A stretch of 16,422 nt of DNA from a virus (taxonomy: Duplodnaviria; Heunggongvirae; Uroviricota; Caudoviricetes), in the IMG/VR virus record IMGVR_UViG_2877285697_000001, positions 1 through 16,422 of that record. One strand, given 5' to 3'. Each line of letters opens with the position of its first letter. Position 1 is the stretch's first letter. Shown here in pieces: positions 2,142 to 16,422 of this stretch. Under the pieces are notes generated by a model. That model ran no database searches. It saw only the letters and a program-made list of their open reading frames with translations, and was not told where the DNA came from. The position numbers were made by a program, and so were the translations under genes.

Positions 2142-3224
2142 TTAGAACTGGTAAACCATACCTACAGCAACGATATCATCGGTAGCAACGCCAGATGCTT
2201 TCGTGAAATCGCTCTTATCAATCAGGTTGATTTTGTAATCAACAAAAGTGGACATATTTTTGTTGAAGTAATAGGTTGCACCTACATCAATATATTCAAC
2301 CAGGTCCTGATCACCCCACGCACCCAAGTCTTTTCCTTTAGATTGCAGGTAAGCAACGGACGGACGCAGACCGAAGTCGAACTGATATTGTGCAACTACT
2401 TCGAAGTTTTGTGCTTTGTTGGCAATATGGTTATTACCAAAAACAGTCATGTTCTGGGTTTCAGAATAGGTGGTAGCCAGATAGATGTTGTTCGCATCAT
2501 ATTTCAGACCAGCTGCCCATACTTCAGCATTTTGACCAGATGCATTCAGGCTGTTGTTACCGTAGATAACCTGATTATTAGTGCGGTCAGATTTAGCATA
2601 GGTTGCACCTACACCGAATCCTTCATACTCATAAGTAGTGGAGAAACCGAAACCATCACCATTAGCTTCAGTTACGTCAGTGCGGTCATTTTTACCCTGA
2701 TACTGAGCAGCAAAGTTCAGACCATCAACCAGACCAAAGAAGTCGTTGTTACGATAAGTTGCAACACCAGTGGTGCGACCAGTCATGAACACATCTGTTT
2801 GGCTCCAGGTATCGCCACCGAATTCTGGCAGAACGTCAGTCCACGCACCGATGTCATATGCTACACCGTAGTTACGGCCGTAATCGATTGAGCCGTAGTC
2901 CCCGAATTTCAGGCCTGCAAATGCAAGACGGGTTTTGTCTTTGGAGGAGCCTTGAGATTCAGCGCGGTTACCTTTGAATTCATATTCCCACTGACCGAAA
3001 CCAGTCAGTTGATCGTTGATTTGGGTTTCACCTTTGAAGCCAAGACGGGCATAAGTAGTATCACCATCATCTGCATCATTAGAGGAGAAGTAGTGCTTGG
3101 CATTAACTTTCCCGTACAGATCCAGCTTGTTACTGTCTTTATTATAAATTTCAGCTGCCTGAGCAGACATCGCCATCAGTACTGATGCAGCTACAGCAGA
3201 AATTGCCACTGTTAATTTTTTCAT
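2142..3224 (-). CDS. nmpC: Outer-membrane general porin NmpC (OmpC/OmpF/OmpD family), intact 360 aa with signal peptide
   Basis: [23 protein letters not shown] signal peptide, porin repeats, C-terminal ...VGMVYQF; sits between Q and holin as in DLP12. Confidence 0.9.
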
Positions 3225-3812
3225 CGTGAGCCCTTTTTTTTGAACTATTATTAAAAAATGATGTCACTGCGCGATAAATATTCATCTAATCAATGTGATT
3301 ATTTCAAGATGTAAGTTTTAGTTTCTCATTTAATTTGTGAAGTAGATCTCTATTTTTATCTGAACTTTTTCTATCGAAACCTATTTATGGCTCTTATTTG
3401 AACAAAAATAAACCTATTAGCTAATTTATATTAATGGCTGTTATTTATGGGGGTTCTATAATTCGGTGGTTTAATTTAAATCAACTAAAAATAACGCCGG
3501 AAATTATTTATTGGTTATTTGTTGAGGTTTTCTTATGTATTTGTGGTGGTGTTTTGAACACTCGGTAGCATTCTCATAAATATCATTCAGTGGTTTACGT
3601 ACGTAAAAAATTGGTTATGCTGTTAAGAGTGGTTACTTCGTCACGCAGCTTAAACCCGCCGTCGAGCTGGTTTTTCCATTTTTTGAGTCTCGATATTAGC
3701 TGATAACTCAATACCTGAGTTATTCACTGACTCCGAGTCTGTTACGTTTCTGCTTTTTTGCGATACGTTGTATTCCCTCAATTTACACCCGCTTTGTCTG
3801 CGAGGTGGGGTT

Positions 3813-4028
3813 ATGAAATCCATGGATAAGTTAACAACGGGTGTCGCCTATGGCACCTCAGCAGGTAGTGCCGGTTACTGGTTTTTACAGCTGCTCGATA
3901 AAGTCACGCCCTCACAGTGGGCAGCAATAGGTGTGCTGGGTAGCCTGGTATTTGGCCTGCTGACGTACCTGACAAACCTTTATTTCAAGATTAAAGAAGA
4001 TAAGCGCAAGGCTGCGAGAGGTGAATAA
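3813..4028 (+). CDS. essD: Holin EssD (71 aa)
   Basis: [71 protein letters not shown] from ATG 3813. Confidence 0.8.
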
Positions 4029-4408
4029 TGCCTCCATCATTACGAAAAGCCGTTGCTGCTGCTATTGGTGGCGGAGCAATTGCTATAGCATCAGTGTTAA
4101 TCACTGGCCCAGGTGGTAACGATGGTCTGGAAGGTGTCAGCTACATACCATACAAAGATATTGTTGGTGTATGGACTGTATGTCACGGGCATACAGGAAA
4201 AGACATCATGCTCGGTAAAACGTATACCAAAGCAGAATGCAAAGCCCTCCTGAATAAAGACCTTGCCACGGTCGCCAGACAAATTAACCCGTACATAAAA
4301 GTTGATATACCGGAAACAACGCGCGGCGCTCTTTACTCGTTCGTTTACAACGTGGGCGCTGGCAATTTCAGAACATCGACACTTCTTCGCAAAATAAACC
4401 AGGGCGAT
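4028..4408 (+). pseudogene. rrrD: Endolysin (lysozyme) RrrD, 3'-truncated by IS600 after residue 127
   Basis: [28 protein letters not shown]...; frame stops at TGA 4409-4411 formed by the IS600 terminus TGAGG; recalled K-12 RrrD is about 165 aa. Confidence 0.85.
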
Positions 4409-4472
4409 TGAGGTAGCCTGAGTTTAACGGACACTCCTTCCTGAAATAGAATGGCATCAGAAGGAGCTAATA

Positions 4473-4775
4473 ATGAGCAGAAAAACCCAACGTTACTCTA
4501 AAGAGTTCAAAGCCGAAGCTGTCAGAACGGTTCTTGAAAATCAACTTTCGATCAGTGAAGGCGCTTCCCGATTATCCCTTCCTGAAGGCACTTTAGGACA
4601 ATGGGTTACCGCCGCCAGAAAAGGGCTCGGTACTCCTGGTTCCCACACGGTGGCTGAACTGGAATCTGAAATTCTGCAACTGCGTAAGGCGTTAAATGAA
4701 GCTCGCCTTGAGCGAGATATATTAAAAAAAGCAACAGCGTATTTTGCACAGGAGTCGCTGAAAAATACGCGTTAA
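4473..4775 (+). CDS. IS600 OrfA
   Basis: 100-aa ORF; differs from the copy at 1-303 by one residue (H58 versus R58). Confidence 0.9.
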   Translation: MSRKTQRYSKEFKAEAVRTVLENQLSISEGASRLSLPEGTLGQWVTAARKGLGTPGSHTVAELESEILQLRKALNEARLERDILKKATAYFAQESLKNTR

Positions 4776-9922: not shown

Positions 9923-10032
9923 TATCAATTCCTGTTGGTATTGCAATGAATGAATAATAGCAATGCGTATTAATCCAAGCAATAGCAAAACGTGTTTTGA
10001 CCATCAATACGCAAGCGTATAAATTAAAACTT
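9923..10032. promoter_or_regulatory. Divergent immunity control region (pR-like and pRM-like promoters with operator dyads)
   Basis: Minus-strand promoter: -35 TTGCTT (complement of 9977-9982), 17-bp spacer, -10 TATTAT (complement of 9954-9959). Dyads AATAGCAATGCGTATT (9956-9971) and ATACGCAAGCGTAT (10007-10020). TATAAA (10017-10022) lies 10 nt before the cI ATG. Confidence 0.45.
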
Positions 10033-10725
10033 ATGAAAAAAGAAACTCTTGCTGATCGCTTAAACCTAGCGATGGAACAATCTGGAATGTCTCAAGGCGC
10101 TCTTGCAAAGGCGTCTGGCGTAGCTCAACCCACAATCTGGAGACTGACAAGCGGCAACGCGCGCGGCTCAACAAAAATTGTTGAAATAGCTAATGCATTG
10201 GGGGTTCGAACAGAATGGCTCTCATCAGGCATAGGCCCGATGAGAAATGACGGTCAACAATCAGGGAAGCCTGCTGTCAGCCATTCAAAATACTTCAAGA
10301 TTGACGTTCTTGATATAGAAGTCAGTGCCGGGCCGGGTGTAATCAACCGTGAGTTTGTAGAAGTTCTACGCTCGGTTGAGTACTCGTTTGACGATGCTCG
10401 TCACATGTTCGATGGCAGGAAGGCGGAAAATATCCGCATCATTAACGTGCGTGGTGACAGCATGTCAGGAACGATCGAACCAGGTGATCTTCTGTTCGTT
10501 GATATCACGGTTAAATCTTTCGACGGTGATGGTATCTATGCGTTTCTGTATGACGACACAGCCCATGTAAAGCGCCTGCAAATGATGAAGGATAAGCTGC
10601 TGGTTATCTCTGATAACAAGAGCTACTCACCGTGGGACCCGATCGAGAAAGACGAGATGAACCGGGTATTCATCTTCGGGAAAGTCATCGGAAGCATGCC
10701 GCAGACGTATAGGAAGCATGGGTAG
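10033..10725 (+). CDS. CI-like prophage repressor, N-terminal HTH plus C-terminal S24 (LexA-like) autopeptidase (230 aa)
   Basis: MKKETLADRLNLAMEQSGMSQGALAKASGVAQPTIWRL... HTH; C-terminal ...RGDSMSGTIEPGDLLFVD...HVKRLQ... Ser/Lys dyad motifs; ATG 10033 chosen inside track ORF 9997-10725. Confidence 0.85.
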   Translation: MKKETLADRLNLAMEQSGMSQGALAKASGVAQPTIWRLTSGNARGSTKIVEIANALGVRTEWLSSGIGPMRNDGQQSGKPAVSHSKYFKIDVLDIEVSAGPGVINREFVEVLRSVEYSFDDARHMFDGRKAENIRIINVRGDSMSGTIEPGDLLFVDITVKSFDGDGIYAFLYDDTAHVKRLQMMKDKLLVISDNKSYSPWDPIEKDEMNRVFIFGKVIGSMPQTYRKHG

Positions 10726-10836
10726 TGAAGGACGTGTCAACTCTATTTTGTAAGCTATCCAGACTCACAGTTGCAGATCGACGAGTAACTTACATACAGC
10801 ACAAAAAAACAATATGCGCGTGCTTTTAGACTAGAC

Positions 10837-10851
10837 TTACCATAATGGTAA
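10837..10851. promoter_or_regulatory. Perfect 15-bp palindrome TTACCATAATGGTAA overlapping the first ATG of the toxin gene
   Basis: Exact dyad symmetry (7-1-7) read directly from the sequence. Confidence 0.35.
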
Positions 10852-11255
10852 CAAGTATGATTCTTAGCAGATATGTGGGAACTCCTCCCCGTGATGGCGA
10901 GGACAGAAAGATTCAAGGTGGTCCGCTTTATTTAGATATCATTGATTTGATTGATGAATGTGACACACTGCCTTGGACCAGACGGTGTATCAGGGATGTT
11001 CAATCGCTTTCTTTAGATGCAGATGACATCAAATCTATGGTGATAAAAGCAGTCACTAAAGGGAGATTTCTAGGTTCAGAATGGTGTCAAGGCAGTAAAC
11101 CAGGTGTATGGGCAGCTTGTGATGCTTATAGCTTTGAGCACTCATTTTGGTGCCAAGCTATGCATAAAGAACTTAATAACGAGTTCTACATTAAATTTTT
11201 TGTAAACATTACTGGCAATGTAGTGCTTACAGTATCTCTTCATCTCTCTAATTGA
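10845..11255 (+). CDS. MqsR-like toxin (putative mRNA interferase); start may instead be ATG 10857
   Basis: Blocks shared with recalled E. coli MqsR: ...TRR...LSLD, DDIKSM (MqsR SDFYKSM), EFYIKFFVNITGNVVLTVSL (MqsR QVYLKITVIHDVLIVSF); toxin gene precedes antitoxin as in mqsRA. Confidence 0.6.
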   Translation: MVTSMILSRYVGTPPRDGEDRKIQGGPLYLDIIDLIDECDTLPWTRRCIRDVQSLSLDADDIKSMVIKAVTKGRFLGSEWCQGSKPGVWAACDAYSFEHSFWCQAMHKELNNEFYIKFFVNITGNVVLTVSLHLSN

Positions 11256-11279
11256 GTGATGATAAATGAGGATTTTTAT

Positions 11280-11867
11280 ATGAGAAACAACAACATATGT
11301 CCAGTTTGTGGTGTAGGTCATCTCACCGTGGAGATGGAGTATGATGATGTTACTTATAAAGGGGAAACAAAAAATCTCCCAATAAGGTTTTCTGTGTGTG
11401 ATCAATGTGGTTCGGAAACTGCCACACCAGTCGATTTACGAGAAAACAAACGAATTTTCAATGAATACAAAAAGTCTATCGATGGACTTTTAACAGGAAA
11501 AGAATTAAAAAAAATTAGAACTGAAGTATGGATGATAACCCAGCAAAAGGCATCCTCTATATTTGGTGGGGGGCCTAAGGCATTTTCCAAGTATGAATCT
11601 GATGATGTCATTCAATCAGAAGCAATGGATAAACTGATGCGTTTAGCAGCAGAAGTTCCTGATGCATTCAAAAGGTTACGGGAATTATCTGGCGAAATCA
11701 AAGTTGAAAGAACAGTCTCATCATCTAAATCTTTACCTATATGGAAATCTGAAGCAAAAGCACAATTTGAAAACGATGATCAGGGATTTGACAGCAAATC
11801 ACCAGCCCAAACAAAAATGAATCAAACATCAATAAAGATAAAAACTGTTGCTAAGCGGGTAGCATGA
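11280..11867 (+). CDS. MqsA-like antitoxin (zinc-ribbon plus XRE-type HTH) with about 60-aa C-terminal extension (195 aa)
   Basis: MRNNNICPVCGVGHL...CDQCGSE zinc ribbon; LTGKELKKIRTEVWMITQQKASSIFGGGPKAFSKYE matches the recalled MqsA HTH block (IFGGGVNAFSRYE); GAGGA 7 nt upstream of ATG 11280; canonical MqsA is about 131 aa. Confidence 0.75.
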   Translation: MRNNNICPVCGVGHLTVEMEYDDVTYKGETKNLPIRFSVCDQCGSETATPVDLRENKRIFNEYKKSIDGLLTGKELKKIRTEVWMITQQKASSIFGGGPKAFSKYESDDVIQSEAMDKLMRLAAEVPDAFKRLRELSGEIKVERTVSSSKSLPIWKSEAKAQFENDDQGFDSKSPAQTKMNQTSIKIKTVAKRVA

Positions 11868-12367
11868 TGAATGAACTTCTTAGATCAGCAATAGACGCAT
11901 TATCAATAATGCATATCAATATCAGAGAATCTAACTTTGCTTTTTCTGAAGGGTATAATAGCTTTAACTTCAACAGCATAAATAAGCAAACACAATCATT
12001 TCGTAAGATAAAAAAAATCGAAGCTATTGAATTAGTAAGTGACGATGACTCATTAAAAAATGAGCTATATTACTCTTTTCACTACTCAGTTGGGCTTAGA
12101 TTTATTGCAAAATCCGAAGAAACATCTAAAGACGAAAATGATGTTGATACAATTTTTTCTATAGAAGCAATTTTTGAGGCGATATATCGCTCAAAGAGAG
12201 AATTATCTAAAGAAGAGTTAGAAGAATTTGCTAAGCAAAATGTAGGTTTTAATGTATGGCCTTTTTGGCGAGAGTATGTTCAAAACAGCACATCCAGAAT
12301 GGGAATTACTACAATAGCTATACCATTCTTTAAATTCAATAAATCAGACATACCTTCATTAGATTAA
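11864..12367 (+). CDS. SecB-like chaperone (167 aa), translationally coupled to the antitoxin (ATGA overlap)
   Basis: N-terminal LSIMHINIRESNFAFS versus SecB FQIQRIYTKDISFEAP; C-terminal TIFSIEAIF and NVWPFWREYVQNSTSRMG...IPFFKF versus SecB GGIFSIAGIE and NILFPYARECITSMVSRG...APVNF (E. coli SecB from recollection). Confidence 0.55.
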   Translation: MMNELLRSAIDALSIMHINIRESNFAFSEGYNSFNFNSINKQTQSFRKIKKIEAIELVSDDDSLKNELYYSFHYSVGLRFIAKSEETSKDENDVDTIFSIEAIFEAIYRSKRELSKEELEEFAKQNVGFNVWPFWREYVQNSTSRMGITTIAIPFFKFNKSDIPSLD

Positions 12368-12381
12368 ATTCAAATATAACT

Positions 12382-12408
12382 CCCGGCTACCGTGCCGGGT
12401 TTTCTTTT
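12382..12408 (+). terminator. Rho-independent terminator ending the repressor/TAC transcription unit
   Basis: CCCGGC-taccgt-GCCGGG stem-loop followed by TTTTCTTTT, 15 nt after the chaperone stop. Confidence 0.65.
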
Positions 12409-12549
12409 GTCCCCTCCCCTCATCACACACCGTTCAAAAAACCACCACGACCTCACTTCAGTTATCGCTATGCGATGCAAGTCACAAAATTAATTCTTTT
12501 TGCTATCAAACATTTAATATCAAAACACATCAACTAATAGCAGTGAGTA

Positions 12550-12578
12550 TTGGTATCACCAATAGCAATAGCTATTAT
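12550..12578 (+). promoter_or_regulatory. pL-like promoter with embedded operator dyads, reading toward gam-bet-exo
   Basis: -35 TTGGTA (12550-12555), 17-bp spacer, -10 TATTAT (12573-12578); dyads TTGGT-atc-ACCAA (12550-12562) and AATAGC-aata-GCTATT (12561-12576); the latter resembles the oR dyad at 9956-9971 and overlaps the -10 in the same way. Confidence 0.45.
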
Positions 12579-15669: not shown

Positions 15670-15724
15670 GGTAATGCTGCCAACTTACTGATTTAGTGTA
15701 TGATGGTGATTTTAAGGTGCTTGC

Positions 15725-16000
15725 GTGGCTTCCATTTCCATCAGATGTCCTTCCTGCTCCGCTACTGAAGGCGTGGTGCGTAACGGCAAAAGCACTGCCG
15801 GACATCAGCGCTATCTCTGCTCTCATTGCCGTAAAACATGGCAACTACAGTTCACTTACACCGCCTCTCAGCCCGGTACGCACCAGAAAATCATTGATAT
15901 GGCCATGAATGGCGTCGGATGTCGCGCCAGTGCACGCATTATGGGCGTTGGCCTCAACACGGTTTTACGTCACTTAAAAAACTCAGGCCGCAGTCGGTAA
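15725..16000 (+). CDS. insA: IS1 InsA
   Basis: Identical 91-aa translation to 8888-9163. Confidence 0.95.
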
Positions 16001-16422
16001 CCTCGCGCATACAACCGGGCAGTGATGTGATTGTCTGCGCTGAAATGGACGAACAGTGGGGCTACGTCGGTGCTAAATCACGTCAGCGCTGGCTGTTTTA
16101 CGCGTATGACAGGATACGGAGGACGGTTGTGGCGCACGTCTTCGGTGAACGCACTCTGGCCACACTGGAGCGTCTTCTGAGCCTGCTGTCGGCCTTTGAG
16201 GTCGTGGTATGGATGACGGATGGCTGGCCGCTGTATGAATCACGCCTGAAGGGAAAGCTGCACGTTATCAGCAAGCGTTACACTCAGCGCATTGAGCGAC
16301 ATAATCTGAATCTGAGACAACATCTGGCAAGGCTGGGACGGAAGTCACTGTCGTTCTCAAAATCGGTGGAGCTGCATGACAAGGTCATCGGGCATTATCT
16401 GAACATAAAACACTATCAGTAA
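15919..16422 (+). CDS. insB: IS1 InsB reading frame
   Basis: Identical 167-aa translation to 9082-9585; stop TAA at the window end. Confidence 0.9.

Follow-up and report, generated by a model that had tools for sequence, protein, structure and literature searches.

Operators of MqsA-family antitoxins have been described in Escherichia coli and Pseudomonas putida. E. coli MqsA binds 5'-AACCT(N)3AGGTT-3', of which PmqsRA carries two copies, and its residues Asn97 and Arg101 have been reported to be important for DNA binding (PMC5422877). We read the K-12 PmqsRA palindrome as TAACCTTTTAGGTTA; palindrome 2 lies, in our reading, in the spacer between the -35 and -10 elements TTGCTG-17-TATAAC. P. 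putida KT2440 has a single 17-bp site, TTAACCT-GGA-AGGTTAA, which overlaps the mqsR ribosome-binding site and through which MqsA binds (EMSA) and represses; its authors noted that the palindrome is kept while the promoters are otherwise dissimilar. In E. coli K-12 two further promoters inside mqsR, pA1 and pA2, transcribe mqsA alone (Fraikin et al. 2019, PMC6918082).

Related modules include a third gene for a chaperone. MqsRAC of E. coli C496_10 is a phage-defence system (Vassallo et al. 2022, PMC9519451; Fernandez-Garcia et al. 2023, PMC10783111), which guards against phage T2 when carried on a low-copy plasmid, by the authors' account under its native promoter (PMC9519451). It has the same three genes as the cassette analysed here. 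A related toxin-antitoxin-chaperone system, Vcho-TAC, was described in V. cholerae RC385 (Bordes et al. 2016, PMC5105189). The papers on these two systems contain no operator, no promoter map and no start-codon overlap, and in the literature that we searched no paper gives the dyad sequence described below and none deals with the regulation of MqsRAC; the single match found there for an operator that overlaps a start codon belongs to a different system.

The whole stretch of DNA analysed (the window, 16,422 nucleotides of a Caudoviricetes record) contains a cI gene facing a divergent Cro-like gene, and a three-gene cassette, beginning with the dyad, lies directly 3' of cI. The features referred to below are as follows.

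10033-10725, plus strand: cI-type S24 repressor (Pfam Peptidase_S24 and HTH_3, annotation).
10727-10844, plus strand: cassette-specific upstream DNA without a terminator (comparison with PhiR34_1, Klebsiella and IMG/VR relatives; terminator scan).
10832-10837, plus strand: TAGACT adjoining the dyad, which together with TATGAT reads as a -35-like element; in a leaderless reading it would instead be a -10, with 7 nt between it and the ATG (promoter scan, family hexamer table).
10835-10853, no strand: extended footprint of family conservation (position frequencies and symmetry table).
10837-10851, no strand: core dyad TTACCAT-A-ATGGTAA, TTACCATAATGGTAA, candidate MqsA-family antitoxin operator (from the sequence).
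10845-11255, plus strand: toxin ORF, 136 aa, MqsR-like in fold and extended at the N-terminus by about 40 aa.
10856-10861, plus strand: TATGAT, -10-like, 18 bp after TAGACT and containing the ATG at 10857 (promoter scan).
11280-11867, plus strand: MqsA-family antitoxin, 195 aa, comprising a zinc ribbon and an HTH followed by about 60 aa of C-terminal extension (PF15731, TIGR03830).
11864-12367, plus strand: SecB-like chaperone MqsC (RefSeq name 'protein-export chaperone SecB', weak Pfam SecB hit, sequence).
12382-12409, plus strand: strong intrinsic terminator that ends the cI-cassette transcription unit (terminator scan; common to cassette-less phages).

Vassallo et al. 2022 (PMC9519451) give in their supplement a synthetic 'MsqRAC gene fragment', ATCCAGACTCACAGTTGCAG...ttagactagacttaccataatggtaacaagtatgattc, which is the window from 10758 onwards with one substitution in the portion shown; this identifies the cassette as MqsRAC, the toxin-antitoxin-chaperone system of E. 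coli C496_10. The published fragment starts 87 bp upstream of the toxin ATG and is functional. Eighteen complete E. coli genomes and phage PhiR70_1 carry the cassette with at least 99% identity, and Klebsiella phage 2b LV-2017 (KY271395, positions 2626-4478, locus L002 of our set) carries a version that is 75% identical. In the cassette-less phage PhiR34_1 unrelated DNA links the cI stop to the same terminator; the cassette, together with the 118 bp preceding the toxin ATG, is therefore an insert at the position of lambda rex. The terminator scan found no terminator-like site between the cI stop (10725) and 10844, in agreement with the initial annotation.

The antitoxin matches PF15731 (E 1.9e-17, 64 bits against a cut-off of 30) and TIGR03830 (E 6e-33, 113 bits against a cut-off of 61.8). 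It has a zinc ribbon with two CxxC motifs and an XRE-type HTH, and its gene lies 3' of the toxin in the same operon. It is 26% identical to E. coli MqsA and longer (195 aa compared to 131 aa), and the alignment stops at residue 134, beyond which lies the extension, presumed to be a chaperone-addiction region. Toxin, antitoxin and SecB-like genes in one operon, with a C-terminally extended antitoxin, make this a TAC module. The antitoxin stop and chaperone start overlap as ATGA (11864-11867), which suggests translational coupling of the two genes. The toxin matches no Pfam or NCBIfam family, reaches only E 0.11 against E. coli MqsR by BLASTP, and gave an empty profile search of PDB sequences and nothing at E <= 0.001 in Foldseek against the PDB. 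It thus falls outside the MqsR family by sequence, and with its MqsR/RelE-type fold it is MqsR-like by fold, plus an N-terminal extension of about 40 residues.

The perfect dyad that had been noted over the first ATG of the toxin is present as described: TTACCATAATGGTAA is a 7-1-7 inverted repeat whose right arm contains the ATG at 10845-10847, the next in-frame ATG being at 10857. Within a single window such a dyad is unremarkable, as its count equals chance expectation (one perfect 7-1-7 dyad, compared to a mean of 1.07 in 100 dinucleotide shuffles); for spacers of 0-4 nt the window has 12 dyads against 5.6 +/- 2.7 in the shuffles. Its significance comes instead from comparison among homologous loci. 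A protein search yielded 28 toxin clusters. Scanning viral contigs, and genomes at one per species, produced 92 loci in which the toxin start was visible; they come from many gamma- and betaproteobacterial genera and have toxin identities of 33-100%. Dereplication left 73 loci (420 kb, 35-66% GC, toxin identities as low as about 34%). Starts were chosen by requiring ATGGT, so that positions +1 to +5 (counted from the A of the ATG) are fixed by construction, whereas the left arm, A+6 and A+7 are not.

TTACCAT-N-ATGGTAA lies on the toxin ATG in all 73 loci, in 55 exactly, in 16 with one mismatch and in two with two. TACCA (-7 to -3) and TGGTA (+2 to +6) are 100% conserved, and the remaining positions are nearly so (T-8 95%, T-2 86%, A+7 96%); part of the conservation seen in the right arm could reflect its role as start codon. 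The extended footprint adds an A at -10 in 99% of loci, with T at +9 in 67% (A in this window). DNA upstream of the dyad is unrelated between lineages, carrying less than about 0.2 bit per position upstream of -14, and no second copy of the motif with up to two mismatches was found in the 420 kb, giving one per locus. The dyad is retained where the cassette occurs in non-phage contexts, in many genera. An MqsA-like gene is present in 92/92 loci, 420-530 nt downstream of the toxin ATG (325 in one), compared to a SecB-like gene detectable by tblastn in 52/92, and the motif therefore tracks the antitoxin and not the chaperone. Conversely, an exact 15-mer scan of viral contigs gave at least 120 matches, and of the 120 listed only nine had a toxin and 111 did not, with no MqsA gene beside the toxin-less ones among the matches listed; in a collection of this size, therefore, the 15-mer does not by itself identify the cassette.

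On these grounds we consider it probable that the MqsA-family antitoxin of the MqsRAC module uses the dyad as its operator, and that the true start codon of the toxin is embedded in it. Other explanations have to be weighed against the same loci. That a palindrome arose by chance, or that coding constraint on a Met-Val peptide alone preserved it, fits with the one perfect 7-1-7 dyad expected per window and with the many unrelated viral sites carrying the 15-mer, nearly all of those listed lacking the toxin. The non-coding left arm is nevertheless invariant, codon 2 is GTA in 73/73 loci against a GTA share of 17% among the other Val codons of these ORFs, and the first base of codon 3 is A in 70/73 while the amino acid varies among eight (N, T, S, K, R, I, P or V). 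These comparative data refute chance and coding constraint as far as computation can, and we give that explanation almost no credence. A more substantial alternative is an RNA element, in which a 6-bp UUACCA/UGGUAA hairpin holding the AUG in its loop and stem throttles translation of the toxin, or marks an mRNA with a very short leader, and the DNA has no binding role. Keeping translation of the toxin low would be biologically reasonable, no Shine-Dalgarno sequence precedes the toxin ATG, and the hairpin is indeed predicted. However the stem is weak (predicted delta-G -4.1 kcal/mol), and Rfam gave no match on 10600-11400. Five of the seven symmetric pairs are invariant, without a compensatory or G-U-tolerant substitution in any of the 73 lineages, while all 20 departures at the other two either break pairing or are G-T, so that no compensatory change was seen in the arms. 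The unpaired flank is conserved as well (A-10), and strict identity over 35-66% GC is typical of protein recognition. The pattern of constraint thus points to a protein reading the DNA sequence rather than to a hairpin, and we regard an RNA element as unlikely.

It might also be argued that the dyad is simply a core promoter element, its centre (TACCAT or CATAAT) being a conserved -10 and its symmetry incidental. CATAAT fits five of six consensus positions, and 9/73 loci have a -35 hexamer matching at least five of six positions 16-18 bp upstream (e.g. TTGACA-18-CATAAT in locus L093). This does not account for A-10, for TTAC in the left arm or for the invariant GGTAA in the right arm, the window lacks a -35 at the right distance, and transcription would begin downstream of the only conserved start codon; we find such a role, taken on its own, quite improbable. 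Finally, the position of the dyad directly 3' of cI in a lambdoid immunity region raises the question of whether prophage cI or Cro, or a host factor, is the protein that binds it. The OR and OL repeats (AATAGCAAT, ATACGC-N2-GCGTAT and TATTGGTATCACCAATA) are unrelated to the dyad, which moves with the toxin-antitoxin pair into non-phage contexts where the antitoxin is the only co-inherited DNA-binding protein, and another binder seems very improbable. As a cI/Cro operator in particular the dyad was rejected, since its half-site is unrelated in sequence to the OR and OL motifs. One of these repeats, the perfect palindrome TATTGGTATCACCAATA, lies downstream of the terminator at 12548-12578 inside a promoter-like TTGGTA-17-TATTAT, and this is likely to be the prophage OL/PL region.

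The antitoxin operator reading gains from comparison with the known sites. When TAACCTTTTAGGTTA, the P. putida site and TTACCATAATGGTAA are aligned on their centres, all three share T.ACC(N7)GGT.A with identical spacing; they are 15-17-bp inverted repeats in which seven bases separate ACC from GGT. As in E. coli and P. putida, the site lies beside a toxin-first operon whose second gene encodes a zinc-ribbon and HTH antitoxin of the MqsA family, and is kept across distant hosts while the rest of the promoter diverges. The dyad lies between the -35-like TAGACT and the -10-like TATGAT in the window, as palindrome 2 appears, in our reading, to lie in a -35/-10 spacer in K-12, and the P. putida site likewise overlaps the translation-initiation region of the toxin. 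There are also clear differences. The half-site here, TTACCAT in place of TAACCT, departs from canonical AACCT at two of its five positions; the unspecified centre is 1 nt instead of 3 nt; there is a single copy, compared to two in K-12; and the dyad, a candidate site, contains the start codon itself, without a Shine-Dalgarno sequence. The initial annotation had likened the palindrome to an ACCT-N-AGGT operator, an analogy which holds for the ACC-N7-GGT geometry and is imprecise for the half-site and for the two residues reported to matter for DNA binding. The equivalents of Asn97 and Arg101 are not conserved, being K and K in the window protein and V (59/73) and K (73/73) in the family. With both the half-site and these residues replaced, recognition is not simply transferable from the solved E. 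coli case, and the specificity of the dyad appears to be related to, yet distinct from, that of E. coli MqsA. Within the family the HTH segment FGGGP[VK]AFSKYExDDVxQSxAMDKLLRL is near-invariant (G93-95, F99, K101, Y102 and D106 in 73/73), and there was too little variation among the 73 loci for any correlation between operator variants and HTH residues to be read. The suggestion of an autoregulatory operator is thus well supported as a predicted site by its conservation, the nucleotide-level constraint, the shared geometry and the near-invariant HTH. It would be a variant of the known MqsA operators, with a new half-site, in single copy, and with a start-codon overlap that would dictate the first codons.

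The annotated start of the toxin differs between sources, being 10857 in PGAP and 10845 in the phage record, and the operator finding would account for this disagreement between gene callers. The proposal that the operator displaces the true start to 10857 was not borne out. The palindromic ATG is the only start conserved in the family (+1 is A in 96% and G in 4%, with GTG in a few loci), whereas residue 5 is Met solely in the enterobacterial clade. In many loci, namely where TTGACT precedes the dyad, an in-frame TGA occupies -12 to -10, and there is no other start ahead of the invariant P15, G26, P27 and Y29; the codon for Ser8 switches between AGY and TCN, showing that the frame is translated. 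In all likelihood, therefore, the native start is 10845. The V. cholerae toxin primer begins ATGGTAAAT, which is the palindromic start of the family. That toxin was expressed from its first ATG (Bordes et al., PMC5105189) and the E. coli toxin from the second, with primer ATGATTCTTAGC (Vassallo et al., PMC9519451); toxicity was seen with both versions and does not tell which start is the native one. The ATG at 10857 (Met5) lies inside the -10-like TATGAT, and Met5 may be kept in enterobacterial relatives as a by-product of this hexamer and not as a start. Since the right half-site contains the genuine, ancestral start codon, the first three codons (Met, Val as GTA, and A-nn) would be dictated by the operator and not by the protein, making this an apparently clean case of a regulatory site that fixes the first codons of a gene.

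Around the dyad, the window has a single sigma-70-like site, TAGACT-18-TATGAT. Among the 73 loci, 35 have a -35-like hexamer at -13 to -8, and TAnnAT follows at +12 to +17 in 26 of these but in only 2 of the other 38 (Fisher p about 8e-10, a value that ignores shared ancestry). In the same 35 loci T+12 is found in 26 and A+13 in 29, while codons 4 and 5 encode 11 and nine amino acids respectively. Examples of this spacer arrangement go as far as TTGACA-18-TATTAT; some relatives instead have TTGACN-16/18-CATAAT, with the dyad centre as -10. The start predicted for TAGACT-18-TATGAT is at about 10866-10869, inside the toxin ORF and downstream of both ATGs, and the best sigma-70-like arrangements, here and in some relatives, predict starts 8-25 nt downstream of the ATG, which would leave the toxin start codon out of the transcript; this awkward geometry counts against the operator reading. 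That the cassette has a promoter of its own in addition to read-through from cI, as the initial annotation suggested, is plausible: the 118 bp upstream are cassette-borne, TAGACT and TATGAT bracket the dyad, and the construct with 87 bp of upstream DNA was active.

Reading the hexamer at -13 to -8 as the -10 of a leaderless promoter is at most an alternative. The clade without a -35-like hexamer has A-12 and T-8 in 24/38 loci, but neither clade has a -35 signal at the expected distance. As separate observations, a Shine-Dalgarno sequence is absent at the toxin ATG in the window and its relatives; cI itself has TTGACC-17-TAAATT followed by 7 nt and the ATG at 10033 (9997-10035), also without a Shine-Dalgarno sequence, and looks leaderless, like lambda PRM; and the toxin (TAGACT-TACCATA-ATG) has the same geometry of -10 plus 7 nt plus ATG.

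We infer binding, repression and the promoter assignment as follows. A dimer of the C-terminal HTH domains of the antitoxin would bind TTACCAT-N-ATGGTAA, 430 bp upstream of its own gene, and repress transcription of mqsR-mqsA-mqsC in a negative autoregulatory loop. As the dyad fills the 18-bp spacer between TAGACT and TATGAT, bound antitoxin would exclude RNA polymerase, and it would also be an obstacle to read-through from the prophage cI promoter. Loss of the antitoxin, for example if the chaperone were titrated during phage attack, would then relieve repression. MqsRAC is an experimentally validated anti-phage module, and the analysis offers a precise candidate operator for the whole family.

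A more speculative extension, which we put forward tentatively, is that the dyad may lie within a promoter that bypasses the toxin. TAGACT-18-TATGAT would be antitoxin-controlled and start about 20 nt inside the toxin ORF, so that the autoregulated transcript would encode antitoxin and chaperone only; since the toxin start codon lies in the promoter spacer, toxin mRNA would have to come from upstream, here by read-through from cI, and one antitoxin dimer would gate both. The lambda promoter pLIT, inside rexA, transcribes rexB alone and offers a parallel at the same map position. Like pLIT and the K-12 promoters pA1 and pA2, the candidate would yield transcripts that start inside the first gene and code only for the protective partner; however pA1 and pA2 are constitutive and lie deep in mqsR, whereas the candidate here is at the extreme 5' end and contains the operator. 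If this were true, the supply of toxin would be tied to lysogeny and cI transcription, and the antidote would always be in excess, with an excess of antitoxin and chaperone built in despite the toxin-first gene order. Such a toxin-excluding promoter and coupling to cI would bear on how abortive or persistence defences remain harmless until triggered.

Several further features of the locus and its relatives were observed. About 40 of the 92 loci (L043-L075, mostly betaproteobacteria) have the toxin, the MqsA-like antitoxin and the dyad with no SecB-like gene detectable by tblastn, and their antitoxins are often shorter, at 147-160 aa; such loci probably represent a two-component form related to the TAC modules. 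In the window, 11733-11747 (TTACCTATATGGAAA) resembles the dyad with three mismatches, probably by chance, and codes for Leu-Pro-Ile-Trp-Lys in the C-terminal extension of the antitoxin. The block CAGCACAAAAAAACAA at 10797-10812 is fixed 19 nt from TAGACT in E. coli, Klebsiella and IMG/VR relatives while the neighbouring DNA differs, and may be a UP-like A-tract or a piece of the cassette's own control region.

The three-gene cassette of KY271395 is unannotated in the public record. A second, degenerate cI 3' end (atgccgaagacgtacaggaagcatggttag) precedes it there and has the look of a scar left by recombination where the cassette was inserted. In the window, two direct copies of IS1 (8833 to about 9600, and 15670-16422, the second cut by the window end) lie 6837 bp apart and flank cro-cI-mqsRAC-kil-gam-bet-exo. 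One copy is placed just beyond cro because the window is again homologous to the intact PI7 prophage from 9601 onwards, and the flanked region could be a composite-transposon-like unit or merely part of a decaying prophage. The window also holds a perfect 367-nt inverted repeat (1-367 and 4409-4775), its arms 4041 nt apart.
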